DNA of 64,000 bases, from positions 1 to 64,000 of the forward strand of contig JAKFCT010000045.1 of the NCBI GenBank assembly GCA_036676495.1. Reading direction: 5' to 3'. Made by a program: the position numbers and the translations under genes. Of this stretch, positions 9,635-61,497 are shown one piece after another; positions within the stretch are counted from its first letter, which is position 1, and each line of letters starts with the position of its first letter. This DNA is from Candidatus Sericytochromatia bacterium (GTDB lineage Bacteria; Cyanobacteriota; Sericytochromatia; S15B-MN24; UBA4093). Under the pieces are notes generated by a model. It did not search any database, had not been told where the DNA came from, and worked only from the letters and a program-made list of their open reading frames with translations.

Positions 9635-9656
9635 CGGATCACGAGTAGGAGCGAGC

Positions 9657-12639: not shown

Positions 12640-14036
12640 CGACTCCGCACCGCCACCCGCTGCCTTCCGACGAGCAGATCGTCGCGGACATCCTCGCTCC
12701 CATGGAGCGGATCACCTGGCGCTTCTGGGTCTTCGTCGCGATCTTGCTGTTGATCGTCGCGCTGGGGATCGGGGCTTACCTCTACATGGCCGCGGTCGGC
12801 ATGGGGGTGACGGGCCTGAGCCGGCCGAACATGTGGGGCTTTTTGATCGCCAGCTTCGTTTTCTGGATCGGCCTCTCGCACTCGGGAACGCTGATCTCGG
12901 CGATTCTGAGGCTGACCAAGGCCGAGTGGCGTCGCCCCGTCGTGCGCGCGGCCGAGGCCATGACGCTCTTTTCCATCATGGTCGCCGCCATCTTCCCCAT
13001 CATCCACCTGGGCCGCTCCTGGCTCTTCTACTGGCTGATCCCCTATCCGAGCGAGCGCTGGCTCTGGCCCAACTTCCGCTCTCCGCTGATGTGGGACTTC
13101 ATGGCGATCACCACCTACCTGACGGGCAGCACGATGTACTTCTTCCTGCCCTTGATCCCGGATCTCGCGACCGTCCGGGATCGCTCCACCGGCTGGAAGA
13201 AGCGCATCTACACGGTGCTCAGCTTCGGGTGGCGGGGGACGGCCGAGCAGTGGGAGCGCCTGGAGCGGGCCCTGTCGATCATGGCCGTGACGATCCTGCC
13301 GGTGGCGGTCTCGGTGCATACGATCGTGTCCTGGGACTTCGCCATGGCGATCGCCCCTCCGATGTGGCATACCACCATCTACGGCCCCTACTTCGTGGCC
13401 GGCGCCATCTACTCGGGGCTGGCGCTGGTCATCACGGTGATGGCCGTCCTGCGCTGGGTCTACAAGCTGGACACCTACCTGAGGCCCGAGCACTTCGACA
13501 AGATGGGCAAGATCCTCCTGACCGTCGCCCTCGTCTGGTTCTACCTCTGGTGGGGGGATTTCCTGATCAGCTGGTACGGCCGGCTGCCGCATGAGCGGCT
13601 CGCCTGGAACGAGTACCTCTTCGGGCGCTTCTGGCCCCTGTCTTGGACCATGTTGCTCGCCAACGCCTTGCTGCCCATCGTTTGCCTCAGCTTCCGGAAG
13701 TTCCGCCATTCCATCCCGGCGATGGTGGTCCTGACCCTGCTCATCAACGTGGGGATGTACTTCGAGCGCTTGCTGATCGTGATCCCGCCCTTGTCCTTCA
13801 AGAACTTCCCTTACGTTTGGGGGCATTACTGGCCGAGCTGGGTCGAGTGGACCATCATCCTCTCGGCGTTCGCCTTCTTCACCTTGCTCTACACGGTCTT
13901 CTCGAAGCTGATCCCGATCGTCTCGATCTGGGAAGTGCGCGAGGAGCGGATCTACACCACGAATAAGCGGGTCGGCAAGGAGACCTACGAGGCGGTGGCC
14001 CTGCCGATGGTCGGCCAGGAGGGCGGTCATGGCTAA
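12636..14036 (+). CDS. actC: Alternative complex III quinol-binding membrane subunit (NrfD/PsrC family)
   Basis: FVFWIGLSHSGTLISAIL, HLGR, WPNFRSPLMWD, SVHTIVSWDFA; many TM helices. Confidence 0.92.
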   Translation: MTTPHRHPLPSDEQIVADILAPMERITWRFWVFVAILLLIVALGIGAYLYMAAVGMGVTGLSRPNMWGFLIASFVFWIGLSHSGTLISAILRLTKAEWRRPVVRAAEAMTLFSIMVAAIFPIIHLGRSWLFYWLIPYPSERWLWPNFRSPLMWDFMAITTYLTGSTMYFFLPLIPDLATVRDRSTGWKKRIYTVLSFGWRGTAEQWERLERALSIMAVTILPVAVSVHTIVSWDFAMAIAPPMWHTTIYGPYFVAGAIYSGLALVITVMAVLRWVYKLDTYLRPEHFDKMGKILLTVALVWFYLWWGDFLISWYGRLPHERLAWNEYLFGRFWPLSWTMLLANALLPIVCLSFRKFRHSIPAMVVLTLLINVGMYFERLLIVIPPLSFKNFPYVWGHYWPSWVEWTIILSAFAFFTLLYTVFSKLIPIVSIWEVREERIYTTNKRVGKETYEAVALPMVGQEGGHG

Positions 14037-14532
14037 GGTCTTCGCCCTCTTCAAGGAGCTCGACGAGGTGGTGGGAGCGGTGGACGCGCTGAAGGCGTCG
14101 CGCTTCGAGACGCGGGACATCGAGCTTTTGTCCTCCATTCCCTATCCGCCGCATGCCGTGGGCTTGCCGGAGACCCGGACCCAGAACCAGGTCTGGCTCT
14201 CGACGGGCATGGGCGCTTTGGGAATGCTCTTCGGGTTCCTGCTCGCCGGGGGGACGGCCTGGCTGTATCAGCTTCCGACCGGCGGCAAGCCGATCGTCGC
14301 CATGCCGACGGTGGCGGTGATCATGTACGAGACGACCATGCTCTTTGCCATCTGGACGGCGTTCTTCGGGGCGTTGATCTTCTTCAAGGGCTGGCGCTCC
14401 AAGCGGGCGCCTTACGATCCGCGGATCGCCGCCGGAGCGATCGGCCTGGTGGTGAGCGTTCCGGACGCGGGGCGCGTGAGCGAGGCCGAGGCGGCCATGG
14501 CGGGAGCCATGGAGGTGACGCGATGGGACTGA
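14029..14532 (+). CDS. actD: Alternative complex III subunit D (DUF3341)
   Basis: Two TM helices around GGKP, YETTMLFA, YDPRI; position after actC. Confidence 0.85.
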   Translation: MAKVFALFKELDEVVGAVDALKASRFETRDIELLSSIPYPPHAVGLPETRTQNQVWLSTGMGALGMLFGFLLAGGTAWLYQLPTGGKPIVAMPTVAVIMYETTMLFAIWTAFFGALIFFKGWRSKRAPYDPRIAAGAIGLVVSVPDAGRVSEAEAAMAGAMEVTRWD

Positions 14533-47844: not shown

Positions 47845-47984
47845 GGTTCGCCGATCACAGCCATGGCGGGGCCTTGTTGGCTAGGATGGCCTAGAAGTCC
47901 GGAGGTTTGGGCGCTTGCGGACCATGGGTATACAAGGCTCACGGGGAAGCATCACCCCGTCCGGCGTGGGCGGAGGGGGCAGGA

Positions 47985-49064
47985 ATGGCCGATATCAACA
48001 TCCGGAACCCTCTGGGTTCCAACGAGATCCGGCCTGGAGGCGGCGCGCCCCAGGCCCCTCGGATCGTGGGCCCGACCGCTCCTTCCATCGAGCAGTCCGC
48101 TTCCCAGCGCCCGCAAGGCCCCAGCTACTTCGGCTACCACAACGACTCCTCCATCGCCGCCCGCTTGGCCCAGCAAGGCGTTCCCCCCAACGCCGTGAAC
48201 CTGCGCATCGCCCAGCAGATGCTGCGCTACGGGATTCCCCTGGGCGGAGACGCCCTCGCCCAGCTGCGTCACCTCTGGCAGACGATGGGCGCCACCTCGC
48301 TGGTGGACCTGGAGGCCCTCATGGCGCTTTTCGCTTCGGGACACCCCGCCAGCGCCGAGAACATGTCCGCCATGACGCAACTGCTCTCGGGCGGCCCCAT
48401 GAGCCACCTCTTCGCCCGGCTCACCATGATGATGCGCAACCACGGTCAGCTTCCGCAGGCCGCCGAGCTTCAAAACCTCATGACCCAGTTCTGGAAGCTG
48501 GGCAACGGTCCCGATAAACTGGGTGGCGAGCTGGCCCAGTTTGAGCAAATCTTCGCTCGAATGGGTAAATTGGCTTCAGGCGACCTTTCGAGGCTTCCTC
48601 CGGACGTCGCCCAGGGCATGAACCAAATCAAGGACTTCATCGCAGCCCAGCAGCTTCTGCTAAAACAGCCCCAGAACACCGTTTACGTGCCTTTCTTTCA
48701 GTGGCGAGATCAGCAGCCGATGCCCGGTGAGCTGCTCGTCCAGGCGGATCAGGATCCGGCCGCGCAGGCGGCCGGTTACGCGCAGGTGGCGCTGGCGGTG
48801 GACACCCGCAATCTCGGGCGGATGCACCTCGACTTCACGGTCATCCGGGGACATCTGAGCGTGCGGCTGGACGTTCCCGATGCCGGCGTCAAGCAGCTCT
48901 TGGAGCGGGGCCTCGCGGACCTGCGTCACAAGCTGGTGGCTCGGACGCCTTACCAGGTGGCCACCATCCTCTGCAACGAGGTGGGGCAGGCCAAGGCGGT
49001 GAGCGTGCTCTTGCCCAAGCGTCGGGATTTGAGGAAGCTCAGTCGGGCGATCGGAGTGCTGTAG
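47985..49064 (+). CDS. FliK-like protein (C-terminal Flg_hook/T3S4-type domain)
   Basis: C-terminal VALAVDTRNLGRMHLDFTVIRGHLSVRL pattern, Pro/Gln-rich N-terminus, followed by a FlhB-C-like gene. Confidence 0.55.
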   Translation: MADINIRNPLGSNEIRPGGGAPQAPRIVGPTAPSIEQSASQRPQGPSYFGYHNDSSIAARLAQQGVPPNAVNLRIAQQMLRYGIPLGGDALAQLRHLWQTMGATSLVDLEALMALFASGHPASAENMSAMTQLLSGGPMSHLFARLTMMMRNHGQLPQAAELQNLMTQFWKLGNGPDKLGGELAQFEQIFARMGKLASGDLSRLPPDVAQGMNQIKDFIAAQQLLLKQPQNTVYVPFFQWRDQQPMPGELLVQADQDPAAQAAGYAQVALAVDTRNLGRMHLDFTVIRGHLSVRLDVPDAGVKQLLERGLADLRHKLVARTPYQVATILCNEVGQAKAVSVLLPKRRDLRKLSRAIGVL

Positions 49065-49271
49065 ATGAGCGAGAATCAACCCATTCGCTTGCCAGCCAGA
49101 CGCCAATCCCAGGCGCTCACGCCCGCTGCAGCCCAGGCGGTGGCGGAAGTGATGAAGGGGCTGACGGTTCAGGCGGCCATCCCGAGGGAGATGCTGCCGG
49201 CGATCGAGGAGATGCTCGGTTACATCTACGCGATGGATGAGCGGGCCCAGAACGGAAGAGGGAGGAGGTAG
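49065..49271 (+). CDS. Short FlhB C-terminal-like protein (FlhX/YlqH type)
   Basis: IPREMLPAIEEMLGYIYAMD resembles the IP.ELY.AVAE.LA.IY.LD tail of FlhB-C. Confidence 0.5.
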   Translation: MSENQPIRLPARRQSQALTPAAAQAVAEVMKGLTVQAAIPREMLPAIEEMLGYIYAMDERAQNGRGRR

Positions 49272-49272
49272 G

Positions 49273-50019
49273 ATGCTTCGGGGAATCTACACCGCGGCCA
49301 CCGGGATGATGTACCAGCTGGACGCGGTCAACACCATCTCCCATAACCTCGCCAACGTCGAGACCAACGGCTACAAGCGCAAAGAATTGCTTGGCGCCAG
49401 CTTCGGCGACGTGCTGATCGAGATGACCGGTCAGGCGCCCGGCATGCAAGGACTCGTCGGCCAGGGCATCCGCTCGGAGGGCGCGTTCCGCTACGACACG
49501 CCGGGCAACCTGGTTGCCACCGGCAGCCCCTTGACCTTCGCGCTGGCCAACCCCGGTTACTTCGTGGTCCAGCGCCAGGATGGCACCCAGCTCATGACCC
49601 GTGACGGCGACTTCTCGATCGACGAGCAGCGCCGGCTGGTCACCAAGAGCGGAGAGCTGGTGCTTTCCGTTCGCCCGCCCGGAAACCAGCTCGCTCCCGT
49701 CGTGCTCCCCGGAGATCTCGCGGCTTTCAAGGTCTCGCCCGAGGGCAACCTCACGCAGGGCGAGGACTTCCTGGGCAGGCTCGTGGTGGTGAACCCGCCC
49801 GAGGCCCAGATGGCCACCTTCCCGGTCGCCCCCGCCCAGCTCCAGCTGGTGGATGGCGGGGTCAAGCAGGGATTCCTCGAGCACTCCAACGTCAACGTCG
49901 TCACGGAAATGGTCTCGCTCCTGCATGCGAACCGGTCGTTCGGCTTCTCGCAGAAGGTCATCATGGCGCATGACCAGATGCTTCAGAAGGCCGCCAACGA
50001 CCTTGGCCGCATCCAGTAG
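49273..50019 (+). CDS. flgF: Flagellar rod protein FlgF/FlhO
   Basis: MLRGIYTAATGM, HNLANVET.GYKR, TRDGDF, QGFLEHSNVNVVTEMV. Confidence 0.85.
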   Translation: MLRGIYTAATGMMYQLDAVNTISHNLANVETNGYKRKELLGASFGDVLIEMTGQAPGMQGLVGQGIRSEGAFRYDTPGNLVATGSPLTFALANPGYFVVQRQDGTQLMTRDGDFSIDEQRRLVTKSGELVLSVRPPGNQLAPVVLPGDLAAFKVSPEGNLTQGEDFLGRLVVVNPPEAQMATFPVAPAQLQLVDGGVKQGFLEHSNVNVVTEMVSLLHANRSFGFSQKVIMAHDQMLQKAANDLGRIQ

Positions 50020-50043
50020 GCCCTTCAGAGGAGGTTACGCCGA

Positions 50044-50811
50044 ATGATTCACGCGATTTGGACCGCCGCTACGGGCATGCAGGCCCAGCAGATGCGCATC
50101 GACACCATCGCCAACAACTTGTCGAACGTCAACACGACCGCCTACAAGCGCTCGAACGTCGACTTCCAGGATCTCCTGTACCAGACCATCAACCAGCCCG
50201 GCGCGGACACGGCCGGCGTTCAGGTCGGCTTGGGCGTGCGCCCGGTGGCCATCACCAAGCTCTACGAGCAGGGTAACCTCCAGATCACCGAGAACGCGCT
50301 GGATCTGGCCATCGACGGCGAGGGCTTCTTCCAGGTGCGGCGCGCCGACGGCACGGTGGCCTACACCCGGGACGGCTCGTTCAAGCTGGACGCCGAGGGC
50401 AACCTGATCACCTCCACCGGTCTCCAGCTGGAGCCTCAGATCCAGTTCCCGGCCGGTACCACCAACATCTACATCGCCAACAACGGTCAGGTGGCCGCAC
50501 AGCTGCCGGGCCAGCCGGAGCAGGCCCCCATCGGTCAGATCAACCTGGCGCGCTTCGCCAACCCGGCGGGTCTCCAGGCGATGGGCAACAACCTCTTGCT
50601 CCAGACGGCCGCTTCCGGCGAGCCCATCATCGGGCCGGCGGATATCGAGGGCATGGGACGGATCCGGCAGGGAGCGCTGGAAACCTCGAACGTGGAGCTG
50701 GTGCGCGAGATGGTCATGATGATCGCCACCCAGAAGGCCTACGACACCTCGTCCAAGGCCATCAACGTGTCGGACAAGATGATGGAGACCGCGAACAATC
50801 TCCAACGGTAA
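50044..50811 (+). CDS. flgG: Flagellar distal rod protein
   Basis: ANNLSNVNT, FQDLLYQ, DLAIDGEGFFQV, YTRDGSF, LETSNVELVREMV. Confidence 0.92.
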   Translation: MIHAIWTAATGMQAQQMRIDTIANNLSNVNTTAYKRSNVDFQDLLYQTINQPGADTAGVQVGLGVRPVAITKLYEQGNLQITENALDLAIDGEGFFQVRRADGTVAYTRDGSFKLDAEGNLITSTGLQLEPQIQFPAGTTNIYIANNGQVAAQLPGQPEQAPIGQINLARFANPAGLQAMGNNLLLQTAASGEPIIGPADIEGMGRIRQGALETSNVELVREMVMMIATQKAYDTSSKAINVSDKMMETANNLQR

Positions 50812-50827
50812 GGAAAGCTAGGAGGCC

Positions 50828-51556
50828 ATGCACAAGGCGGCAACGCTCGGATTGTTTCTCGTGGCTTGGGCGATCGCGCTCATGCCGGCCCATGCCGCTC
50901 CCTTGCGGGAGCGCGACGTGGTCGAGTTCGTCGCCGAGCAGGCCGCCTTGCGCTATCAGGCCAAGCGATCGGATATCAAGGTCACCTGGGAGGGGACGCG
51001 TCTCGCGTCCCTGGCCGGAGGAGGTCTGGACGGCTCGCAGGTCACCTTGCACCTCGATCCGGATACGCGGCTCGGGGGGAAATCCGCCATTCCCCTGCAG
51101 CTTTTCAAGGACGGGAAGCGCTTCAAGACCATCTTTCCCCGCCTGGAGATCCTGGTCCTGAGGGAGGTCATGGTGGCGGTGAACGGGGTGGCGCGAGGTG
51201 ACGCGATCGCCGAGGGCGACGTGCAGCTCGTGAAGCGGGCCTTGCATACCATCCCCGGAACGCCCATCCTGGGAGGGCCCGAGGTCCTGAAGGGGGCCGT
51301 CGCCAAGCGGTACGTGGCGAAGGGGACGGTTCTGGTGGAGGGGGCCTTCGACTTGCCGCCCTTGGTCCGGAGCGGTAGCATGGTGGCCGTGAAGGTCGTC
51401 AGCGGAGCGCTCACGATCATCGCCAGTGGCCAGGCCGTTTCGGATGGGGCCATGGGGCAGCTGATCCGGGTCGTGAACCTGGACACGCGCAAGGACTTCG
51501 TGGCGCGGGTGGTCGGTGAGAATCGGGTCGAGATCCACCTGGAGGAGGAACGATGA
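50828..51556 (+). CDS. flgA: P-ring assembly chaperone
   Basis: Signal peptide, SAF-like domain, LVRSGS.V, GQAVSDGAMGQLIRVVN; position before flgH/flgI. Confidence 0.85.
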   Translation: MHKAATLGLFLVAWAIALMPAHAAPLRERDVVEFVAEQAALRYQAKRSDIKVTWEGTRLASLAGGGLDGSQVTLHLDPDTRLGGKSAIPLQLFKDGKRFKTIFPRLEILVLREVMVAVNGVARGDAIAEGDVQLVKRALHTIPGTPILGGPEVLKGAVAKRYVAKGTVLVEGAFDLPPLVRSGSMVAVKVVSGALTIIASGQAVSDGAMGQLIRVVNLDTRKDFVARVVGENRVEIHLEEER

Positions 51557-52236
51557 GGAGGTTGGTCATGGGGAAGTGGGCGATGGCAGGCTTGCTCGCC
51601 ACCATGATGACGGGCGCGCCGCTGCTGGGGACCGCACCGTTTCAGGGGATCGCTCCGTTTCTAGGGGTAGCCCCGTTTCTTGGGATAGCTCCGGCGTCGG
51701 CGGATTCGCTTTACCGGGCGGATGATCCCGGTCTCTTGAGCGATCGCCTGGGCGATCGCCGCTCGCAGTTCGGACCGGGCGCGTTGGTCACCGTGATCGT
51801 CACCGAGAACATGCAGGCCTCGACGACGGCGACCACGCGGGCTCAGAAGGAGTCCAAGAACGGGGCCAACTGGAACTTGGGCTCGATCATCCCTCAGGGA
51901 GCCGCGGGCGAGGTGAGCGTCGGAGGCAAGACCGAGTTCGCCGGCGACGGCCTGACCCGCCGGGGAGGGGTCATCACCCTGGAGATCGCCGCCGTGATCC
52001 AGGAGGTCCTGGCCGATGGATCCTTGCGGATCGAGGGTAAGAAGGATCTGAGGGTGAACGACGAGGTCAGCACCGTCACGATCGCGGGCGTCATCCGTCC
52101 CTTCGACATCGATCCGGGAAACCGCGTGGCCTCCACCCGGATCGCCGACCTCAAGCTCGACTACAAGGGCGCCGGCCCGGTCCACGCCAAGACCTCGCCT
52201 GGCTTGTTGTCCCGCCTCTTCAACTGGCTTTTCTAG
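51553..52236 (+). CDS. flgH: Flagellar L-ring protein
   Basis: VTVIVTE, GSLRIEGKK, GVIRPFDIDPGNRVASTRIAD, PGLLSRLF. Confidence 0.9.
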   Translation: MRRLVMGKWAMAGLLATMMTGAPLLGTAPFQGIAPFLGVAPFLGIAPASADSLYRADDPGLLSDRLGDRRSQFGPGALVTVIVTENMQASTTATTRAQKESKNGANWNLGSIIPQGAAGEVSVGGKTEFAGDGLTRRGGVITLEIAAVIQEVLADGSLRIEGKKDLRVNDEVSTVTIAGVIRPFDIDPGNRVASTRIADLKLDYKGAGPVHAKTSPGLLSRLFNWLF

Positions 52237-52245
52237 GAGTCTGAG

Positions 52246-53370
52246 ATGCGCCGCTGGCTGACCCTATTCCTGGCCCTCCTGATGCCGCTGGCTCTCATGA
52301 GCCCGGCCTCGGCCGAGGTCTTCAAATCCGATCAGCCCGTGCGGCTCAAGGACATCGCCTTCGTCCAGGGAGCCGTCGACAACCAGTTGACCGGCCTGGG
52401 CCTGGTGGTGGGTCTCAACGGGACGGGCGACACGCAGCAGACTGGCTTCACCGAGCGGGTGCTTCGCAACCTTGTCATCAACACGGGCGTTTACGTGGCC
52501 CAGGAGCGGATCCGGGCGAAGAACGTGGCGGTCGTGACCGTGACGGCCAAGCTTCCCCCCTTCCTCAAGCCCGGCCAGAAGATCGACGTGACCGTGGCCT
52601 CCATCGGGGACGCCAAGAGCCTCAACAACGGCGTGCTGGTCCAGACCCCCCTGATGGGTCCCGACGGCAAGACCTACGCGGTGGCCGAGGGCTCGCTCTC
52701 CACGGGAGGCTTCGAGGTCTCCGCCAACGGCAGCTCGGTCAGCAAGAACCAGTCCCTGGTCGCCCGCATCCCCAACGGGGGAATCGTCCAGCGCGACGTG
52801 CCCGTGACGATGATCGACGCCAACGGCTTCCTGCACCTCAACCTCAACGAGCCCGACTTCGTGACGGCCTCGCGGGTGGCCGCCGCCATCCAGAAGAGCT
52901 ACCTGGGCACGGCGCAGGCCATCGACGCCGCGACCATCCGGGTCTACGTCACCAGCCAGTACCGGGACAACCTCGTGAACCTGGTCGCACGCCTGGAGCA
53001 GATCAGCGTGCTCCCCGATCTGGTCGCCAAGGTTGTGATCGAGGAGCGAACGGGTACAGTAATCTTGGGGTCGAACGTCCGGATCGGTCCGGTCGCGATC
53101 ACCCACGGCGGGTTGTTGCTCAAGGTGGACACCCAGACGACCGTTTCGCAGCCCAACGCCCTCTCTGCGGGCGCGACGACGGTCGTGACCAACTCGTCGG
53201 TTTCTGCCGAGGAGCAGAAGGCCAAGAGCGTGGTGCTCGACGCCGGGACCACCCTGGGGCAGCTGGTGAGGGCGCTGAACGCGCTGGGCACCACGCCGCG
53301 GGAGCTGATCTCGATCGTGCAGAACATCAAGGCGGCCGGGGCGTTGAACGCCCAGCTGGAAATCATCTAG
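52246..53370 (+). CDS. flgI: Flagellar P-ring protein
   Basis: RLKDIA, NQLTGLGLVVGLNGTGD, GDAKSL, ERTGTV, AAGALNAQLEII. Confidence 0.95.
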   Translation: MRRWLTLFLALLMPLALMSPASAEVFKSDQPVRLKDIAFVQGAVDNQLTGLGLVVGLNGTGDTQQTGFTERVLRNLVINTGVYVAQERIRAKNVAVVTVTAKLPPFLKPGQKIDVTVASIGDAKSLNNGVLVQTPLMGPDGKTYAVAEGSLSTGGFEVSANGSSVSKNQSLVARIPNGGIVQRDVPVTMIDANGFLHLNLNEPDFVTASRVAAAIQKSYLGTAQAIDAATIRVYVTSQYRDNLVNLVARLEQISVLPDLVAKVVIEERTGTVILGSNVRIGPVAITHGGLLLKVDTQTTVSQPNALSAGATTVVTNSSVSAEEQKAKSVVLDAGTTLGQLVRALNALGTTPRELISIVQNIKAAGALNAQLEII

Positions 53371-53393
53371 CCGCTGTCGGCAAGGAGTGAGCC

Positions 53394-53729
53394 GTGGACC
53401 GTATCAACCCTTATATGAGCGGGTTTCCGCTGAGTCCACTCTCGGCCGCTCCCATGCCCGTCGCTCCGAAGCAGGGGCTCGGCCTGGAGGAGACCCGCCA
53501 GGCGGCCGAGGAGTTCGCCGGTTATCTTTTTGCCCAGGTCTTCAGCCAGATGCGGCCGGAGTCCAATGAGGAGGGGGGATTGTTCTCGGGAGAGAACGCC
53601 GAAATGTTCATGAGCTTCTTTGATCAGGCTGTTGGCAAGAGCTTCGCAAACTCGGGCTCTGGCAACCAACTGGTGGACCAGTTGGTGCAGCAGCTCGTTC
53701 AAGCTCAGTCGAAAGCCCAGCAGGAGTAG
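53394..53729 (+). CDS. flgJ: Rod-cap protein, rod-binding domain only
   Basis: AAEEFAGYLFAQVFSQMR...GLFSG, no muramidase domain; follows flgI. Confidence 0.75.
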   Translation: MDRINPYMSGFPLSPLSAAPMPVAPKQGLGLEETRQAAEEFAGYLFAQVFSQMRPESNEEGGLFSGENAEMFMSFFDQAVGKSFANSGSGNQLVDQLVQQLVQAQSKAQQE

Positions 53730-53738
53730 GAGCGCACG

Positions 53739-54410
53739 GTGAAGAAGCCTGTCACGTCAGCGAAACGGATGGATGATGCCGCCATCAAGCAATACTTGCC
53801 GATGGTTCGGGCGATCGCCCGTCGCCTCTCCACCAAGCTGCCGCGTCACTACGATGTCGAGGACTTGGTCTCCGACGGCATCATGGGCCTGATGGCCGCG
53901 GCCGATCGCTTCGATCCCGAGCGCGGCGTCAAGTTCGAGACCTTCGCCACCTACTACATCAAGGGGGCCATCCTCGACAACCTGCCCAAGCTGCCCACCA
54001 TCCCCAAGAACCAGCGCCAGCAGGTCGAGGACGAGAACTCCGAAGAGGCGATGCAGAGCTCCCTGACCCAGCTCGCCTACTCGTACATCCTCAGCCTGGA
54101 CGCCCCGTCCGGCTCGGACGGCGACGAGTCCTTCTCGCTGCTCAACCAGCTGGGCTCCAGTGACACCATCCAGAACGAGATGGAGCTGGAAGATCTTCAG
54201 CAGACCCTGCGCCTCACCATCGAGCAGTTGCCGGTCCAGGAGCGCACCACGCTGCGCTACTACTACTTCCACAACATGTCGTTCAACGAGATCGGCCAGA
54301 AGCTGGGTCTGTCGGAGTCCTGGGTCAGCCGCATCCACCGCAGGGCGCTGGAGCAGCTCAAGCAGAAGCTGGGCAAGAAGAAGAGCATCGACGACTTTAT
54401 TAGTTGGTAG
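53739..54410 (+). CDS. fliA: FliA/WhiG-family sigma factor, divergent
   Basis: DLVSDGIMGL, RFDPERGVKFETFA, region 4 EIGQKLGLSESWVSRIH; region 3 shortened. Confidence 0.85.
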   Translation: MKKPVTSAKRMDDAAIKQYLPMVRAIARRLSTKLPRHYDVEDLVSDGIMGLMAAADRFDPERGVKFETFATYYIKGAILDNLPKLPTIPKNQRQQVEDENSEEAMQSSLTQLAYSYILSLDAPSGSDGDESFSLLNQLGSSDTIQNEMELEDLQQTLRLTIEQLPVQERTTLRYYYFHNMSFNEIGQKLGLSESWVSRIHRRALEQLKQKLGKKKSIDDFISW

Positions 54411-54444
54411 CTGCAGACGCTAGTTGGTAGGGGTATCCGTTGCC

Positions 54445-54497
54445 GTCATTCCCGCGGAAGCGGGAATCCACTGGACCCCCGCTTTCGCGGGGGTGAC
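54445..54497. repeat. REP-like double palindrome
   Basis: gtcattcccgcggaagcgggaatcca-c-tggacccccgctttcgcgggggtgac; related copy at 40347. Confidence 0.8.
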
Positions 54498-54519
54498 GAG
54501 AGAGGAAGGGGGTGTCAGC

Positions 54520-54942
54520 ATGTTCGGAATGGAACTCAAAGGTCTCGAGCGCGCTCTGGACGGCCTGAGCACCCGCTTTTCGGCCCAGGCGAACAACGTC
54601 GCCAACGTCAACACTCCCAACTATCAGCGCCAGGTGGTCAACTTCGAGGACTCCCTCAAGGCCATCCTGGAAACCGCCAAGGCTGAGGGCTCCCAGGAGC
54701 CATTCGAGAATCCGATGCAGGGCTTCTTCGGGCAGTCGTCGACCGATGCCGCCGCCATGCTCGAGATGTGGTCGCCGACCGTGACCACGGTGGAAAACAA
54801 AGCTTTCCGCCGCGACGGCAACGGCACCTCCATCGAGTCCGAGATGGCGGACGTGGTCAAGACCGTCCAGCGCTTCAACACGGTGACCACCATGTTGGCC
54901 TCCGAGTATCGGACGCTCAAGTTCGTCATCGACGCGAAGTAA
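54520..54942 (+). CDS. flgB: Flagellar proximal rod protein
   Basis: ANNVANVNTPNYQ, RRDGNGTSIESEM; start ATG 54520. Confidence 0.9.
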   Translation: MFGMELKGLERALDGLSTRFSAQANNVANVNTPNYQRQVVNFEDSLKAILETAKAEGSQEPFENPMQGFFGQSSTDAAAMLEMWSPTVTTVENKAFRRDGNGTSIESEMADVVKTVQRFNTVTTMLASEYRTLKFVIDAK

Positions 54943-54952
54943 TTTGTCGCTT

Positions 54953-55016
54953 GGCGGGCGCAGAGGCCCGCCCTACTGCCCCTACCTTAACCGTGGCACG
55001 GGCGTCCCTGCCCGCG
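54953..55016. repeat. Two GTAG/GTGG-type REP-like hairpins
   Basis: ggcgggc-gcagag-gcccgccctac and gtggcacgggcgtccctgcccgcg. Confidence 0.5.
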
Positions 55017-55247
55017 CATGTCCGCCTGTGCGTTCTTGCAGCGCGTCCTCGCCTGCGATCACGCTCGGCGTGACCGATGCCACGGCTTCCGACTTCAGCG
55101 CTCGGTATTATGTAACGAGCCCCCTTGCCGGTGCCGCTTGTAGGCTTAAGCGGGTTTTAAACCCCAAACCGTGCTACCAAGCCCTTTCCCGGGTATAGGG
55201 GGAGTAGTGTGATTAGCCAGACCGGTCCTTCGACCTGAGGGGGAGTC

Positions 55248-55655
55248 ATGAGCATCTACAACGTCTTCGATGTTTCGGCCTCCGCGCTGACCGCCAACCG
55301 CTTCTGGTTGGAGGCGATTTCGAATAACATGGCGAACTCCGCCGCCACCCGGACGCCGGACGGTGGGCCCTACCAGCGCCAGATGCCGGTCTTCCAGACC
55401 CTGCTCGACGAGGCGACGGGCCAGCTCAAGGGCGTGCAGGTCGCCGGCACCCACAAGGACCAGACTCCCGGGCCCTTGGTCTACAAGCCCGGCCATCCCG
55501 ACGCGGATCCCAACGGCTTCGTGAGGATGCCCAACGTCAACGTCGTGACCGAGATGGTCGACATGATCGCCGTCAGCCGGGCCTACGACTCCAACGTGAC
55601 CATCGCCAACGCGGCCAAGAACATGCACCAGAAGTCCCTCGAGATCGGGCGATAG
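55248..55655 (+). CDS. flgC: Flagellar proximal rod protein
   Basis: SNNMANS, GGPYQR, YKPGHPDADPNGFVRMPNVNVVTEMVDMI. Confidence 0.95.
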   Translation: MSIYNVFDVSASALTANRFWLEAISNNMANSAATRTPDGGPYQRQMPVFQTLLDEATGQLKGVQVAGTHKDQTPGPLVYKPGHPDADPNGFVRMPNVNVVTEMVDMIAVSRAYDSNVTIANAAKNMHQKSLEIGR

Positions 55656-55664
55656 GAGGCTCTG

Positions 55665-56048
55665 ATGCTCGTCAACTACCACCAGCTCAACGCCCTGCCG
55701 GGCCGCAACGATCCGCTCGCCGCCTTCAACGAGTTCGAGGACAAGTTCGCCCAGTTCGGCCTTCAAAACAACCCGGAGTTCCCCGGGACGCTCGATCCGT
55801 CGGCGAACGTCCTCAATCCCGGCGAGACCCGGGACTTCGGGGACGTGCTCAAGGACGCCATCCAGGGCGTGAGCGACAAGCACCACCATGCGCTGGAGCT
55901 CGGCGTGGACTTCAGCCTGGGTAAGCCCATCGACCCCCACCAGATCATGCTGGCGGTGACCCAGGCCGAGACCCAGGTTCACCTGACCTCGGCCGTCACG
56001 ACGCGCGTCGCCCAGGGCTATCAGACCCTGATGAACATGCAAATCTAG
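55665..56048 (+). CDS. fliE: Flagellar hook-basal body protein
   Basis: FGDVLKDAI..V, DPHQIMLAVTQAE, C-terminal YQTLMNMQI. Confidence 0.88.
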   Translation: MLVNYHQLNALPGRNDPLAAFNEFEDKFAQFGLQNNPEFPGTLDPSANVLNPGETRDFGDVLKDAIQGVSDKHHHALELGVDFSLGKPIDPHQIMLAVTQAETQVHLTSAVTTRVAQGYQTLMNMQI

Positions 56049-56049
56049 T

Positions 56050-57933
56050 ATGGGAGCGCTTCAGAATCTCCTTCAAAACAAGAAACTGCTGGCCATCGTC
56101 GGGGGAGGCGTTGGCCTCCTCGTCGTGATCATCATCGTCGTGATGATGGCGATGGGCGGCGGCAAGAACAAGGAGAAAGAAGCGGAATCCTGGACCGTGC
56201 TCTTCCGCAAGATGGATGGAGTCTCGGCGGGCGAGGCTGCGGGCAAGCTGCAAGAAGCCAAGATCGAGAGCAAGCTGCTCGAGGACGGGACGGCGATCGC
56301 CGTCAAGAAGGAGAACGCCGACAAGGCGCGCATCGCGCTCTCCTTGGCCGGCCTGCCCAAGAACGCCGAGCCCGGCTTTGAGATCTTCAACAAGAAGGAC
56401 TTCATCTCCACCGACTTCGACAAGAAGATCGCCTTCCTCCGGGCCCTGCGCGGAGAGCTGAAGCGCCTCGTCAAGCAGATCGACGGCGTCGAGGACGCCG
56501 GCGTCATCGTCAACCTTCCCGAGGACACCCTCTTCCAGACCGAGCGCAAGCCCACCACCGCCGCCGTCATGGTCGTCATGCAGCGCGGGCGCTCCCTCAA
56601 TCCCATGCAGGTGGAAGGCATCCAGCACCTCGTCGCCTCCTCGGTTCCCGGCCTCTTGACCGACAACGTCACCGTCACGGACAAGGACGGCCACCTCCTG
56701 TCCAGCGGCATGGAAGCCAACGCCGGCAACAAGGACGAGCGCAGCCTGATGCGCGCCCTCAACGAGCAGATGAAGGTCACCCGCCAGATGGAGGCCGACC
56801 TCGAGAACCGTCTCACCTCGCTGCTGGACAAGCTGGTGGGCTCGGGCAAATCGGTCGTGCGCGTCAAGCTCGAACTGGACTTCAACAAGCGCCAGGTCAT
56901 GAACCAGTTGCTGGCCCCCGTGCTCAACAACGGCGAGCCCGTGGCCGTCAACCGCACCCTCGTCGAGGAGCGCAACGGCACCGCCACCAACGGCGGCGTG
57001 CCCGGCGTGGCCTCGAACGTGCCTTCTTACCCGGCCCTGCCGAGCGAGATGGGCGGCGACAAGGAGTCCTACCGCAAGAACCTTCGCGAGCAGCAGGCCC
57101 TCAGCATGGAGCGCCAGCTCGTGAACACGGCCTCCGGCAACATCAAGCGCATGTCCATCGCCGTGCTGCTTCCCGAATCGGTGAAGCCCGACGGAGTGGA
57201 GCGCCTGCGCATGGTCATCGCGACCGCCGCCGGCGCCGACCAGGCCCGCCGCGACCAGGTGACCGTCGAGCGCGTGAAGTTCGACACCTCCCTCGAAGAC
57301 GCCCTGAAAAAGGAGCTCGAGGACAAGGACGCCGCCTCCAAGAAGCCCAAGGGCAAGTCGGTCTCATGGGGCCTGGTCTGGGCCGCGGGCGGAGGACTCT
57401 TGCTGCTCTTCCTGCTCATCGCCTTCATCCGCCGGGCAACCCGCAAGCAAGAGGACCCCTTGGCCGCGCTCACCGCGCTCAGCGGCGACGGCGATTCGCT
57501 GCCGTCGTTCGATCAGTCGGCTTTGGCCGGTATCCCGCCGGGCTTCGGCCAGATGGGCTTCGATCAGGACGCCCTCTCGGGTCAGATGGGTTACGACCAG
57601 GGACTGCCCGGAGGCGATCCGTACGCCAACATGCAGTACGAGGAGCCTGCCATGATGGCGCCTCAGGCCCAGGCCATGGGCGGTGCGTTCGACTTCCTCT
57701 ATGAGGTCGCCCCCGAGCAAGTCTCCGAACTCCTGGGCATGGAGAAGCCCCAGAGCGTCGCCGGCGTGCTGGCGCAGCTCGACCCGGGCTACGCCGAGCA
57801 GGTGCTCAACTACCTCTCGCCGGACATCCAGCAAGAGGTCTTCAACCGCTTGAACTCGGGCGCCTCCTTGCCCGCCATGACCCAGAAGATGCTGAGCCAG
57901 TCCCTGCGGCGGAAGCTCGGCGTCCCGGTCTAG
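56050..57933 (+). CDS. fliF: MS-ring protein FliF with C-terminal FliG middle-domain fusion
   Basis: TM, GFEIF, RALRGELKR, LVASSVPGL, GVPGVASN, second TM, then FDFL...EKPQSVAGVLAQLDP. Confidence 0.88.
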   Translation: MGALQNLLQNKKLLAIVGGGVGLLVVIIIVVMMAMGGGKNKEKEAESWTVLFRKMDGVSAGEAAGKLQEAKIESKLLEDGTAIAVKKENADKARIALSLAGLPKNAEPGFEIFNKKDFISTDFDKKIAFLRALRGELKRLVKQIDGVEDAGVIVNLPEDTLFQTERKPTTAAVMVVMQRGRSLNPMQVEGIQHLVASSVPGLLTDNVTVTDKDGHLLSSGMEANAGNKDERSLMRALNEQMKVTRQMEADLENRLTSLLDKLVGSGKSVVRVKLELDFNKRQVMNQLLAPVLNNGEPVAVNRTLVEERNGTATNGGVPGVASNVPSYPALPSEMGGDKESYRKNLREQQALSMERQLVNTASGNIKRMSIAVLLPESVKPDGVERLRMVIATAAGADQARRDQVTVERVKFDTSLEDALKKELEDKDAASKKPKGKSVSWGLVWAAGGGLLLLFLLIAFIRRATRKQEDPLAALTALSGDGDSLPSFDQSALAGIPPGFGQMGFDQDALSGQMGYDQGLPGGDPYANMQYEEPAMMAPQAQAMGGAFDFLYEVAPEQVSELLGMEKPQSVAGVLAQLDPGYAEQVLNYLSPDIQQEVFNRLNSGASLPAMTQKMLSQSLRRKLGVPV

Positions 57934-57944
57934 GGCGCGGCTAG

Positions 57945-60059
57945 ATGATCGCCCTTCCGGGAGGAAAACAAGGCGGCCTCTTGGGCGACCTCGCCCTCGC
58001 CGCCATTGTCGTCATCATCCTGGGCATCCTCTTGCTGCCCCTGCCGACGATCATCCTGGACTTCCTGATCGTCTGCAACATCGTCATCTCGCTGATCATC
58101 CTCTTCGTCGCCCTTTACCTGATCAAGCCGCTCGAGTTCGCGAGCTTCCCGTCGATGCTGCTGATCACGGCCTTGTACCGCATCAGCTTGTCGGTGGCCA
58201 CCACCCGCTCGATTCTCCTCAACGGCGAGGCGGGACATATCATCGACTCGATGGCGAACATCGTCATGGGCGGCAACTTCCTGGTCGGCATCATCATCTT
58301 CCTGATCCTGATCCTCGTGAACATGATCGTCATCACCGAGGGCGCCAAGCGCGTCGCCGAGGTGGCGGCGCGCTTCACCCTGGACGCCATGCCCGGTAAG
58401 CAGATGTCCATCGACGCGGACCTGGCCTCGGGCCTGATCGACGGCAACGAGGCCAAGGCCCGCCGCGAGAACCTCGTCCGCGAGTCGAGCTTCTTCGGCG
58501 CCATGGACGGCGCCAACAAGTTCGTGAAGGGCGACGTCATCATGGGCATCGTGCTGATCGTCGTCAACATCATCGGCGGCATCCTGATGGGCATCATCTT
58601 CAAGCAGATGGACGTCATGCAGGCCATGCAGAAGTACACGCTGCTGACCGTCGGTGACGGCCTGGTGGGCTTGATTCCCTCGATCCTGATCTCGATGGCC
58701 GCCGGTTTCGTCACCACGCGCGCGGCCTCGGAGAACAACCTCTCCATCGACCTCAAGAACCAGGTCTTCGGCTCCCCCAAGACCATGGCCGTCGCGGCGG
58801 TGGTCGTCACCCTGATGGGCTTCATCCCCGGCTTCCCCGCCTACTTCTTCATCCCGCTGGGTCTGGTGCTCGGAGCGGTCGCCTTCATGAGCTTCCGCAA
58901 GTCGATGGCGCCTCCGCCCACCGACGACTACATGATGCCCGGCGACGACATGATGGACGACTACGCCCCCGAGGCCGACGAGGATCTCAAGAACCCCGAG
59001 AACGTCATGAAGATGCTCGGCGTGCCTCCGCTCACCCTGGAGCTGGGGCTCGACCTCGTGCCCCTGGTCGACCCGGGCCTGGGCGGCGAACTCATGGATC
59101 GGGTGGTCCCCATGCGCGTGAACATCGCCCTCGACATGGGCTTCGTCATGCCGGGCATCCAGTTCAAGGACAACCTCAACCTCCGGCCCAACGCCTACCA
59201 GATCCTGGTGAAGGGCAACGTGGTGGCCGGGGGCGAACTTCTGGTCGGCTACATGCTGGCGATTCAGCAAGCCATGACCGATACCAGCCAGGAGCTGGTG
59301 GGCTTCCCCACCACCGACCCCGCCTTCGGCAAGCCCGCGGTCTGGGTGGCCGGCGCCGAGGCCCAGCGGGCCGCTCAGCTCGGCTATCTGATCCAGGACC
59401 CGACCAACGTGCTCACCGCGCACCTCGAAGAGGTGGTGCGGTCGTTCGCCCATGAGATCCTGAGCCGCGAGGAGGTCCAGATGATGCTGAACCGCCTCAA
59501 GGAGAAGGCTCCGGTCACGGTCAAGGATCTGGTGCCCGAGATCCTCTCGCTCTCGGAGGTCCAGCGCGTCCTGCAGGCCCTCATCCGCGAGCGCGTCAGC
59601 ATCCGGGACCTCGCTACCATCCTCGAGAAACTGGCCGATTACGGCAAGATGACCAAGGACGTCTTCGTGCTCACCGAGCTGGTCCGCCAGTCGCTGGGCC
59701 GCCAGATCTGCGCGGGCCTGGCCGACGAGGAGGGCCAGATCACGGTCATCACCCTGGATGCCGGGGTCGAGAATACCGTTCAGCAATCGATTCAGCAGGG
59801 CCCCACCGGCCCCAGCCTGGCCATCAACCCGCAGATTGCTCAGCTCGTCTTGGCAAGGCTCGCCTCGGTACATCAGGAAGCCATCTCCAAGGGCTACAAT
59901 CCCTGCCTGATCACCAGCCCCGTCACCCGCCCGCACATCAAGGGCCTCATCGACCGCAACTTCCCGCAGATGGCGGTCATCTCCTTCGCCGAGATCTCGA
60001 GCAAGTACAAGGTCCAGTCGGTCGGCTCGGTTTCGATCGCCGTGGGGGCCGTGTCTTAG
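57945..60059 (+). CDS. flhA: Flagellar export gate protein
   Basis: GAKRVAEVAARFTLDAMPGKQMSIDADL, FFGAMDGANKFVKGD, DPAFG, VSIRDLATILE. Confidence 0.95.
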   Translation: MIALPGGKQGGLLGDLALAAIVVIILGILLLPLPTIILDFLIVCNIVISLIILFVALYLIKPLEFASFPSMLLITALYRISLSVATTRSILLNGEAGHIIDSMANIVMGGNFLVGIIIFLILILVNMIVITEGAKRVAEVAARFTLDAMPGKQMSIDADLASGLIDGNEAKARRENLVRESSFFGAMDGANKFVKGDVIMGIVLIVVNIIGGILMGIIFKQMDVMQAMQKYTLLTVGDGLVGLIPSILISMAAGFVTTRAASENNLSIDLKNQVFGSPKTMAVAAVVVTLMGFIPGFPAYFFIPLGLVLGAVAFMSFRKSMAPPPTDDYMMPGDDMMDDYAPEADEDLKNPENVMKMLGVPPLTLELGLDLVPLVDPGLGGELMDRVVPMRVNIALDMGFVMPGIQFKDNLNLRPNAYQILVKGNVVAGGELLVGYMLAIQQAMTDTSQELVGFPTTDPAFGKPAVWVAGAEAQRAAQLGYLIQDPTNVLTAHLEEVVRSFAHEILSREEVQMMLNRLKEKAPVTVKDLVPEILSLSEVQRVLQALIRERVSIRDLATILEKLADYGKMTKDVFVLTELVRQSLGRQICAGLADEEGQITVITLDAGVENTVQQSIQQGPTGPSLAINPQIAQLVLARLASVHQEAISKGYNPCLITSPVTRPHIKGLIDRNFPQMAVISFAEISSKYKVQSVGSVSIAVGAVS

Positions 60060-60186
60060 GCCTGGCGGTCCCCGCCGCCGCGCCGGCACTCCTGCTCGCG
60101 GAGCGATGAGACTTGCTGAGGGTCGAGCATTGTGGGAACATGGCAGGACCTGTCGCCCTGTTCGAACCACGAAGCGAGATTCATCG

Positions 60187-61497
60187 ATGAAGCCTCTCAC
60201 CAAGCTCATGCCCCTGGCGGTTTCCGCCCTCGTTCTTGCGGGTTGTACGCCCCCCTGCATCCATAACAGCTCTAACGGCATGCCCACCCTGACGTCGCTG
60301 GGCATTCAAGACGCCCGCTCGCTTTTCATCGCGGGTCAGACCTCGGGCCAGTACCGGATTGCCAGCGGCCCCACCCAGCAGGCGCTCTACAAGGTGGATG
60401 CCTCGGGAGCCGTCTCGGCCGTCGAGGCCAAGTTCGGCAGCGGCTCGGGTTACATGATGCTCTCGCTGAATCCCCAGTACGTGACCCAGATCTCCGAGAA
60501 CTTCATCGTTCTCGGGACCAGCTGGGGCACCTTCCTCGTCCGTCGCACGGACGGCAAATCGGCGCGGCTCGATTCGACGCCCACGTACGTCATGAGCGAC
60601 GGCATGCAGGCCCCCGTCCAGGCGGACAAGATCGGGAACATCTACCTGAACTCCCACCAGGAGGGCCTCTACAAGGTCGCCTTGCCAACCGAGCTGACCT
60701 CTGACGACCTGACGAAGACCTCGATGATCAAGGGCGAACTGGAGCTGGTCCAGCAGTTTGCCGTGAATCACGCCGGCTACCTCGTCGCCACGGTCTCCCC
60801 CAAGTCCAACGGTCCCATGAATCCCAAGACGCGCCTTTACAAGCCGAGCGGAAGCGTCCAGAACCTTTCGACGAGTGGGCAATTCGGCGGCGGGTCCATG
60901 TGGGTCGCCAAGGACGGTACGCTTTACATGCATGCCTACGGCTCCTCGGGCCCGGCTCTCCACATGCTCTCGGTGGATGCCAGCGGGAACGGGACGTTGG
61001 TGCCCGTCGAGGGATGGACGGAACCCAGCTACATGTCGATGCCCTACAACATGCCGGCGCTGCTTCCGGACCAGACGGTTCTCTCGGGCAACGAGTATAG
61101 CCGGGAGACGAACGAGCAGCATCCCAACGGGATCGACCTCTACAAGCCCTATCTCTTCTTCGTGAAGGGAGCCAAGGCGACCAAGGAATACCTGACAAAG
61201 GTCGTCAAGGTCTCGGCGATCGCGGCATCCGCCACGACGGTCGTCATCCTGGGCACGGATCAGGCCGAGAACACCATGGTGAGCTCGTTCGACCCCGTGA
61301 CGAAGGAGGAGAAGGTCCTCTTCAGCGATGCGAACTACCAGATCCTGAAGATGACGGTGGCCGCCAACGGGACGGTCACCCTCAACGCCCTGCGTCTGGC
61401 CGACAACACCTATGTCGTGGCGGACATCAAGGACGGAGCCCTCGCCGTCGCGAACTCGGAGTTGCCGCCCGTCAAGCAGTTCCTGACGCTGCAGTAG
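60187..61497 (+). CDS. Uncharacterised beta-rich lipoprotein
   Basis: MKPLTK...LVLAGC lipobox; repeated short beta-strand pattern; start ATG 60187 (or 60208). Confidence 0.7.
   Translation: MKPLTKLMPLAVSALVLAGCTPPCIHNSSNGMPTLTSLGIQDARSLFIAGQTSGQYRIASGPTQQALYKVDASGAVSAVEAKFGSGSGYMMLSLNPQYVTQISENFIVLGTSWGTFLVRRTDGKSARLDSTPTYVMSDGMQAPVQADKIGNIYLNSHQEGLYKVALPTELTSDDLTKTSMIKGELELVQQFAVNHAGYLVATVSPKSNGPMNPKTRLYKPSGSVQNLSTSGQFGGGSMWVAKDGTLYMHAYGSSGPALHMLSVDASGNGTLVPVEGWTEPSYMSMPYNMPALLPDQTVLSGNEYSRETNEQHPNGIDLYKPYLFFVKGAKATKEYLTKVVKVSAIAASATTVVILGTDQAENTMVSSFDPVTKEEKVLFSDANYQILKMTVAANGTVTLNALRLADNTYVVADIKDGALAVANSELPPVKQFLTLQ

Follow-up and report, generated by a model that had tools for sequence, protein, structure and literature searches.

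Hook-basal bodies without filament or flagellin occur in Buchnera, where they are thought to be protein exporters and where fliG is kept. Dual flagellar systems are also known, as polar and lateral flagella in Vibrio or Aeromonas and as fla1 and fla2 in Rhodobacter, and these are known to carry set-specific FliG, junction proteins, cap and flagellin. For the non-flagellated Chlamydiaceae, a FliF of about 330 aa has been described that is fused to a homologue of the FliG M-region (Bergeron 2016, PeerJ, PMC4768692). Lysobacter enzymogenes OH11 is without fliC, and its flagellar type III secretion system exports non-flagellar proteins, according to Fulano et al. 2020 (PMC7688988). A large survey finds that, among simple predictors of flagellar motility, FliC presence performs best, and it places "partial sets" mainly in Chlamydiota (PMC12199754). 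The subject of the present analysis is a window of DNA (the whole stretch analysed, 64,000 nucleotides of contig JAKFCT010000045.1) from a Candidatus Sericytochromatia metagenome-assembled genome (MAG), here called G000. This genome holds two flagellar gene sets, A and B. The flagellar cluster of the window forms the core of set B, which is a second type III secretion and basal-body system of flagellar type, ancient and conserved across the Sericytochromatia.

Each of the described systems resembles set B in part. In Buchnera, an endosymbiont, a single ancestral flagellum has been reduced along with the genome, whereas the Sericytochromatia are free-living, have genomes of 2-7 Mb and carry a separate second system with no separate fliG. 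The dual systems share with G000 the presence of two divergent, non-recently duplicated sets per genome (identity between sets A and B is 42% for FlhA, 50% for FliP and 57% for FliI, with FlhA in separate clades), but set B lacks its own FliG, junction proteins, cap and flagellin. The Chlamydiaceae are similar in that the cytosolic C-terminus of FliF is a FliG M homologue, FliG_C is absent and the structure is presumed not to serve motility; in contrast, the chlamydial FliF has a shortened periplasmic part and is accompanied by few flagellar genes, whereas the protein described here has 627 aa, full YscJ_FliF and YscJ_FliF_C domains and a near-complete set around it. In Lysobacter enzymogenes flagellar genes are also kept without functional flagellin, and the export apparatus is expressed; however, that case concerns a lone, reduced set within a single pseudomonadotal genus, for which the abstract reports no FliF-FliG_M fusion, while set B is class-wide, coexists with a complete flagellum in most lineages and seems to have its C-ring rewired.

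No description of this Sericytochromatia/Blackallbacteria system was found in the literature searched; for the fusion, one precedent is published, that of the Chlamydiaceae. Until now, reduced flagella acting as exporters had been described for endosymbionts, for Chlamydiae and for individual genera; the Sericytochromatia, a whole free-living, non-photosynthetic class next to the cyanobacteria, possess a second system that is stable, complete and evolving separately, beside the ordinary flagellum or instead of it. As a second system of flagellar type that has neither a filament nor a FliG torque domain but carries a FliF-FliG_M fusion, set B is best placed as a variant within the flagellar family. 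On balance, set B is probably an envelope-spanning hook-basal-body machine for export or for a surface structure and not a propeller.

Two flagellar gene sets in one genome

Genome G000 consists of 106 contigs (91.9% complete, 6.7% contamination). The nearest public matches of the window FliF belong to Candidatus Sericytochromatia MAGs (96% and 91% identity), and named FliF and FlhA homologues are likewise labelled Sericytochromatia. The proteins of the window were annotated by Pfam and NCBIfam profile searches. A first-pass annotation, made from the letters alone, had proposed a flagellar cluster bounded by non-flagellar genes, in which fliF carries a FliG middle domain and is followed straight by flhA. 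These features and the list of genes were confirmed, and so was the end of the cluster at position 60059; its first open reading frame (ORF) was found to start at 47907 and not at 47985. The genes form an unbroken string on the plus strand, with a coding-type GC content at third codon positions (GC3) of 0.76-0.93 throughout (Table 1).

The same annotation had described the apparatus as rod-and-ring only. It is true that no flgD/E, flgK/L, flagellin, motAB, fliM/N, fliPQR or full-length flhB was found within the 64-kb window, but the apparatus is not limited to rod and rings, since the remaining set B genes lie on contigs C34, C42, C27/C48 and C20. By membership tests, set B comprises an export gate, MS ring, rod, P and L rings, hook with cap and length control, and FliM/FliN. 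The FlgG deletion that had been suggested was not supported, the protein being full length against its profile. Set A occupies contigs C38, C23 and C29, and on C38 it forms a Bacillus-like fla/che super-operon, whose FliG (336 aa) is complete, with N, M and C domains. The hook proteins of the two sets are unlike in size, with FlgE of 358 aa in set B and 610 aa in set A; the set B orthologue in genome G030, a relative considered below, has 532 aa.

Both FliF types were found together in 35 of 41 genomes of the class. In one of them, G008, which is 100% complete in 30 contigs, each FliF type lies on a contig of more than 300 kb. Therefore, the co-occurrence of the two sets is not a binning artefact. 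In a tree of FlhA (26 rows picked from 120 listed, together with both FlhA of G000; midpoint root only), set B formed its own clade with 100/100 support, whereas set A grouped with Firmicutes-type sequences.

The export genes of set B are of flagellar type. Flagellar equivalogs outscored injectisome ones for FlhA, FlhB, FliP, FliQ and FliR, and FlhB, FliP, FlgG, FlgC, FlgB, FliE and FliF exceeded the cut-offs of their flagellar equivalogs; FlhA of the window reached 761.7 bits against its equivalog (cut-off 772.1) versus 620 bits against SctV. The only secretin seen in G000 stands in a Tad-pilus locus on C38, the needle protein not having been searched for. With FlgH, FlgI and a full rod present as well, the proposed distinction from the secretin-based injectisome held.

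The first-pass annotation had also allowed for the case that these are the only rod and ring genes of one ordinary flagellum. FlgH (one match in the whole genome), FlgI and FlgA (self matches only in tblastn) are indeed the only copies in G000, but FlgB, FlgC, FliE, FliF, FlhA, FlgF, FlgG, FliK and the sigma factor have second copies in set A, and thus the cluster is more than a part that fills a gap in a single flagellum. A related explanation takes the window for the outer half of a composite flagellum, which supplies P and L rings, FlgA and distal rod to set A while its duplicated core genes are spare or regulatory paralogues. The three single-copy genes agree with this explanation, as does the lack of P and L ring genes at the loci of set A, though the organism should be diderm. 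In 39 of 41 class genomes, FlgI also had a single match (the misses being G002, 85% complete, and G036, 98% complete). However, in 34 of those 39 genomes FlgI shares its contig with the long fliF of set B and not with the fliF of set A. In addition, flgF and flgG copies are present in set A itself, set B encodes a full export gate, ATPase, hook and C-ring separately from set A, and the family f7 retains the rings and the whole of set B without set A. The composite flagellum is therefore regarded as quite improbable.

Family f9 was considered as a set-A-only control for the need of rings and was dropped, because 5/5 of its genomes were without FlgI and flagellin. These genomes (G048, G056, G070, G110 and G112, about 1.9 Mb) have one normal FliF, no FlgI and no Flagellin_N match. 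The f9 set resembles another partial flagellar set, and one paper refers to studies of such partial gene sets in Gastranaerophilales (PMC6340189).

Some further features of the two sets were recorded. FliO and FliP of set B are encoded by a single ORF of 428 aa, and G030 has the same fusion (413 aa). The set B fliI is split over the ends of C27 and C48, so that these contigs are probably genomic neighbours. Two stand-alone proteins of G000 resemble FlhA in its cytoplasmic part only (FHIPEP positions about 318-558; frames of 397 and 484 aa, 41-43% identical to the FlhA of the window); they are encoded outside any flagellar locus, and the wider frame on C47 shows one TGA. ORFs of about 750 aa upstream of second FlgE-like genes (on C60 of G000 and in G030) were considered as a conserved part of the system and rejected, as they are not homologous. 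Inspection by eye of 14 stretches upstream of set B operons revealed no consistent shared promoter motif.

The FliF tail and the predicted C-ring

Residues 555-623 of the set B FliF match FliG_M (E 8.6e-11, Pfam), and the tail aligns to residues 109-163 of the FliG of G000 itself with 31% identity. In an alignment of 45 long FliF proteins, the tail is the best-conserved cytoplasmic part of the protein, and E565, P567 and R600 are each conserved in at least 90% of the sequences; these residues stand at positions which we take to be those of the FliG motif EHPQR, the FliM-binding site. Within the genus, the ratio of nonsynonymous to synonymous substitution rates (dN/dS) was 0.055 and 0 for the tail and 0.07-0.09 for the whole of fliF. 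The values of 0.26-0.66 obtained for fliF against other f1/f4 genera were not interpreted, as GC3 was about 0.9 and dS 0.6-1.6.

The fusion is conserved class-wide. Long FliF proteins (ORFs of 603-669 aa, with the match extending into the tail) were found in 44 of 47 class genomes, and the misses were G006, where a contig end cuts the ORF, G044 (73% complete) and G042 (87% complete). None was found in the 104 other genomes of the phylum sample, of which 52 (families f9 and f27) have a single FliF of 540-583 aa and 52 have no FliF. In a word-limited architecture search of a collection of 5.8 billion proteins, the named proteins listed with both YscJ_FliF and FliG_M were all labelled Sericytochromatia except four (Pantanalinema sp., "Cyanobacteria bacterium", "[bacterium]" and "compost metagenome"). 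Public records call the listed fusion proteins simply FliF, and FlhA is named just as plainly; genome-based predictions of motility may therefore mislead for these organisms. The nearest neighbours of FliF in the ESM Atlas, which serve as leads only, are YscJ_FliF plus FliG_M clusters with scores of 0.91-0.94; such clusters are commonest in Planctomycetota and Vulcanimicrobiota and have 479-486 aa versus 603-669 aa here.

Partners for such a tail may be encoded on C34. The 299-aa FliMN_C protein of set B scores far under the FliM cut-offs of NCBIfam and has 27 homologues, which are lineage-restricted. The best PDB matches of its model (pLDDT 81) were FliM chains of Salmonella C-ring structures (E 3e-14), with TM scores of 0.74-0.81 and an rmsd of about 4 Å against FliM middle domains; by this model, the protein is predicted to have the FliM fold. 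The same operon encodes FliN (113 aa) and a FliN-like protein of 463 aa. In the latter, about 270 residues form a confidently modelled polytopic membrane domain, which precedes a FliN/SpoA-type C-terminus. Only the C-terminal part matched PDB entries, and weakly, while no match at E <= 0.001 was obtained for the membrane domain; at E <= 1e-10, only 15 relatives were found among 1.84 billion representatives. The N-terminus of the 299-aa protein contains a conserved S-x-E-L-N-x-L, which is presumably loosely like the CheY-P-binding N-terminus, of which the FliM of set A shows the canonical form.

A possible architecture can be drawn from these data. The window genes encode the MS ring, the full rod, and the P and L rings with their chaperone. 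The genes for the export gate are those of FlhA in the window and of FlhB and FliOPQR elsewhere, and an ATPase complex of FliH/I/J is also encoded elsewhere. For the hook with its cap and ruler, set B has FlgD/E on another contig and FliK in the window, and it has its own sigma factor. The cytoplasmic ring would be built differently from that of a flagellum: FliF itself would bring the FliM-binding middle domain of FliG, and the FliM-fold protein, FliN and the membrane-anchored FliN-like protein would dock directly on the MS ring. A FliG N-terminal or C-terminal (torque) domain does not belong to set B, which presumably does not rotate; likewise without dedicated junction proteins, cap or flagellin, the machine would act as a protein exporter or bear a short surface structure. 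A C-ring rewired in this manner gives testable predictions as to which parts serve export and which rotation.

More tentatively, and with less confidence than is placed in an export or surface role, we propose that set B is an undescribed non-motile envelope machine kept throughout the history of the Sericytochromatia, with a ringed hook-basal body, a C-ring bolted on by FliF-FliG_M, a FliN-like tether and neither torque domain nor filament. Together with the FliF-FliG_M proteins of Chlamydiae and Planctomycetota, it could then form a widespread overlooked branch. If so, a present-day counterpart of the stage postulated between flagellum and injectisome would survive in that non-motile branch.

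Set B in a family without flagellin

Family f7 comprises six genomes of five genera, which are 74-98% complete. The long fliF was found in five of them, and no second FliF was detected at E <= 1e-10 in any of the six. Flagellin_N had no match in the six genomes, as against 13/13 genomes with a match in the sister family f6; FlgK_D1 and FliD_C were likewise not found above their cut-offs in any of the six, nor FliG_C in the three tested. FliG_M was present in 5/6 genomes, solely within FliF. The rest of set B was largely detected: FliI and full-length FlhB in 6/6 genomes, one each; FlgI and FliP each in 2/3; FliMN_C in 3/3, three each; and Flg_bbr_C, which marks axial-family proteins, in 3/3 with eight matches each. 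This family is a natural experiment in which the ordinary flagellum has been lost and set B has been kept.

The f7 genome G030 is near-closed (3 contigs, 93% complete, GC 26%), and the gene orders of its set B operons equal those of G000 in the window and on C34. The first operon is flgB-flgC-fliE-fliF-flhA, the second is flhBc-flgF-flgG-flgA-flgH-flgI-rod-binding-sigma, and the third is fliM-(membrane FliN-like)-fliN-fliOP-fliQ-fliR. When G040, G043 and G036 were compared with G030 for flgB, flgC, fliE, fliF and flhA, dN/dS was 0.05-0.23 in 15/15 comparisons (dS 0.65-1.7, the larger values being partly saturated). Therefore, it may be concluded that in f7 set B is kept by selection without flagellin, junction proteins, cap or a recognisable FliG torque domain.

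These data bear on the view that set B is a decaying, functionless relic of a former flagellum. Such decay could be seen in the FlhB-C-like gene, which is a 68-aa remnant, and in the sigma factor and the FlgF-like protein, which score under their equivalog cut-offs. All 14 other genes are intact, however, the set is present in 44 of 47 class genomes, and dN/dS is low both in f7 and within the genus of G000. In addition, contigs of the metatranscriptome library X20 were 90-98% identical over 17 of 30 cluster bins, covering parts of 7 genes, which is a weak hint only, since DNA can occur in such libraries. A relic is accordingly hardly credible.

It was also considered that set B might be a second ordinary motility flagellum that relies on set A for FliG, junction proteins, cap and flagellin, f7 being a special-case reduction. 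Basal body, hook, export apparatus and FliM/FliN are all present, as this explanation requires, and some relatives have many flagellin genes (for example, nine Flagellin_N matches in G004). In G000, however, FliG_C, FlgK_D1 and FliD_C each had one match, and these, as well as the single FlgL and the single full flagellin, are at set A-type loci; no set B copy of FliG_C, FlgK, FlgL, FliD or flagellin was found with the Pfam models. Genome G001 also has one FlgK_D1. Flagellin_N matched three times in G000: besides the flagellin and FlgL, a 190-aa frame on C29 gave a partial match that covers profile positions 16-63. The set-specific copies of the known dual systems and the strong difference between the two hooks also speak against this explanation.

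Alternatively, the second flagellum could use a long FliG together with MotAB. A second FliG_C match, in a frame of 615-752 aa, was found in 9/9 other f1 genomes. In the three loci that were examined, the membrane-anchored protein (613-687 aa) has a signal or transmembrane segment and FliG N, M and C domains, and one of the three shows a weak FliF_C-like stretch. Upstream lies a gene of the DUF5723 outer-membrane type, and downstream a TPR or FlgO-like gene (2/3 loci), motA and motB. No orthologue of this locus was found in G000 by tblastn; as that genome is 91.9% complete, the locus may be missing from the assembly and might serve set B. Yet the long FliG is not universal, whereas the FliF tail nearly is: family f3 has one FliG_C match in each of 8/8 genomes, and the long-FliG locus was found in neither f3 nor f7 (0/3 genomes tested). 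For this reason, the locus is treated as a separate device, although this is not proven. Considering also that f7 holds set B under purifying selection without flagellin, a second motility flagellum is thought unlikely.

The long-FliG locus is one of several observations that weigh against an exporter that does not rotate. Stators exist: three MotAB pairs are encoded in G000 (on C38, C27 and C57), and the pair on C27, which lies beside fliH/fliI of set B, meets the MotA1 equivalog cut-off. MotB was also found in 3/3 f7 genomes tested, one each. A stator could thus act on set B via an unrecognised partner. In G030, MotB adjoins Flp-pilus genes and not flagellar genes. The MotAB pair of this genome shares 34-38% identity with the C38 pair of G000 and equally with the C57 pair, and by similarity no pair is assigned to set B. 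Set B further retains FliK, FlhB, FlgD/E and the additional axial-family proteins noted above for f7, and its hook gene in G030 stands beside fliJ and cheW; these are hints of late substrates or of behavioural control, and set B may bear a filament that is not made of flagellin. The absences in f7 were called with Pfam models on incomplete MAGs, and in genomes with two sets the rings of the window could serve set A as well.

The first-pass annotation had gone further and suggested a repurposed, non-rotating conduit distinct from the motility flagellum. Its notion of a repurposed conduit agrees with the selective retention of set B in f7 without FliG_C, FlgK, FliD and flagellin, but the word "non-rotating" can be used only conditionally, as MotAB was present in every genome tested. 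The distinction from a motility flagellum is valid insofar as no set B copies of FliG_C or of filament parts were found; the same genome nevertheless holds an ordinary full flagellar and chemotaxis set.

Features of the window and minor observations

The coordinates of the features are collected in Table 1.

Table 1. Genes of the window cluster, set A and set B genes on other contigs, and further loci (positions without a contig or locus name refer to the window)
Feature	Length (aa)	Position	Strand	Evidence or content
fliK-like, hook-length control	385	47907-49064	+	PF02120 Flg_hook, residues 287-345, E 1.1e-8, 35.2 bits (cut-off 29.8); no NCBIfam match
FlhB-C-terminal-like remnant	68	49065-49271	+	Short similarity to G030 orthologue
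flgF-like, proximal/distal rod	260	49237-50019	+	Flg_bb_rod, LlgE_F_G_D1, Flg_bbr_C; FlgEFG subfamily 137 bits (cut-off 70); FlgF equivalog 122 bits (under cut-off 178.5)
flgG, distal rod	255	50044-50811	+	TIGR02488 flgG_G_neg, 335.8 bits (cut-off 252.75), profile positions 1-258 of 259
flgA, P-ring chaperone	242	50828-51556	+	PF13144 ChapFlgA, E 2e-23
flgH, L ring	227	51553-52236	+	PF02107, E 1.8e-37
flgI, P ring	374	52246-53370	+	PF02119, 402.7 bits
Rod-binding (FlgJ N-terminal type), no hydrolase domain	111	53394-53729	+	PF10135, E 2.6e-7; FlgJ equivalog 26 bits (cut-off 193)
FliA/WhiG-like sigma factor	223	53739-54410	+	Sigma70_r2 and Sigma70_r4; FliA_WhiG subfamily 159.4 bits (under cut-off 189.6)
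flgB, proximal rod	172 (ORF)	54424-54942	+	TIGR01396, 71.5 bits (cut-off 59); family match begins at residue 36
ORF between flgB and flgC, probably not a gene	84	54944-55198		No family match; GC3 test failed
flgC, proximal rod	135	55248-55655	+	TIGR01395, 148.2 bits (cut-off 102)
fliE	127	55665-56048	+	PF02049, E 5.3e-17; TIGR00205, 59.6 bits (cut-off 30)
fliF, MS ring	627	56050-57933	+	YscJ_FliF, YscJ_FliF_C, FliG_M
FliG-middle-domain-like FliF tail	residues ~545-627	57682-57930	+	FliG_M match
flhA, export gate	704	57945-60059	+	PF00771, 788.6 bits; directly after fliF
ORF of unknown family, set membership uncertain	463	60106-61497	+	Directly behind flhA
Set B, C34		G000:C34		flgD (197 aa), short flgE (358 aa), 299-aa FliMN_C, 463-aa FliMN_C, fliN, fliO-fliP fusion, fliQ, fliR
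Set B 299-aa FliMN_C protein	299	L012:7764-8663	-	Predicted FliM fold
Set B FliN-like membrane protein	463	G000:C34:42372-43763 = L012:6372-7763	-	In fliM-fliN operon
Set B FliO-FliP fusion	428	G000:C34:40732-42018	-	One ORF
Set B flhB, full length		G000:C42		357.8 bits (cut-off 349)
Set B fliH and fliI		G000:C27/C48		fliI split across contig ends
Set B fliI, part on C27		G000:C27:1-794	-
Set B fliI, part on C48		G000:C48:2-661	+
Set B fliJ		G000:C20
Set A, C38, first part		G000:C38:20800-52100 (whole super-operon)		flgB, flgC, fliE, fliF (528 aa), fliG, fliH, fliI, fliJ, fliK, flgD, flgE (610 aa)
Set A, C38, next part		G000:C38		flbD, motA, motB, fliL, fliM, fliY, fliO, fliP, fliQ, fliR, flhB, flhA
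Set A, C38, end		G000:C38		PilZ gene, cheR, cheA, cheC, cheD, sigma factor (regions 2, 3, 4), cheW
Set A, C23		G000:C23		flgF, flgG, rod-binding gene, flgN, flgK, flgL, fliW, csrA, flhF, flhG
Set A, C29		G000:C29		flagellin, flaG, fliD, fliS, fliT
Stand-alone FlhA-like protein, C38		G000:C38:14629-15312	-	Cytoplasmic part of FlhA only
Stand-alone FlhA-like protein, C47		G000:C47:3173-4627 (L013)	-	Cytoplasmic part of FlhA only
Long FliG of G001		L034:7302-9143	-
Long FliG of G008		L035:6991-9054	+
Long FliG of G003		L036:5826-7787	+
Operon like alternative complex III		9077-14532		Multihaem cytochrome c7-like protein, molybdopterin-family subunit, 4Fe-4S protein, NrfD-like, ActD
Erythromycin esterase family gene		4088-5413	-	PF05139, E 4e-124

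Among the genes of the cluster, the ORF that had been called flhB-C-like in the first pass has C-terminal similarity, being 31% identical (E 3e-6) to the last 35 residues of a 98-aa FlhB-C-like orthologue, which has the same operon position in G030. It is only a remnant, however: no Pfam or NCBIfam model matched it, and it lacks the N-terminal half of the domain, which the orthologue retains. The remnant and fliK share a reading frame, with one stop codon between them (window 49062-49067). The sigma factor gene occupies an equivalent position in G030. FliA_WhiG was the best-scoring family for its product, in which Pfam detected regions 2 and 4 only and no Sigma70_r3 match.

The 84-aa ORF between flgB and flgC is probably non-coding, because it matched no family, failed the GC3 test and lies in an interval with indels between strains; in this strain-variable interval (54941-55236), contigs from two metagenome runs skip 113-125 bases or substitute them. 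The 463-aa ORF behind flhA matched neither Pfam nor NCBIfam, and its position is not conserved in G030, where a PP2C phosphatase gene and a TPR gene come after flhA.

The flanks of the cluster are non-flagellar, with a pilin-like gene, a GNAT gene and HemN upstream, and the 463-aa ORF and a PAS kinase downstream. Outside the cluster, the window has no flagellar gene; its remainder contains housekeeping and other genes, among them DnaG, ClpB, PEP synthase, sensor kinases, an erythromycin esterase family gene and the operon resembling alternative complex III.

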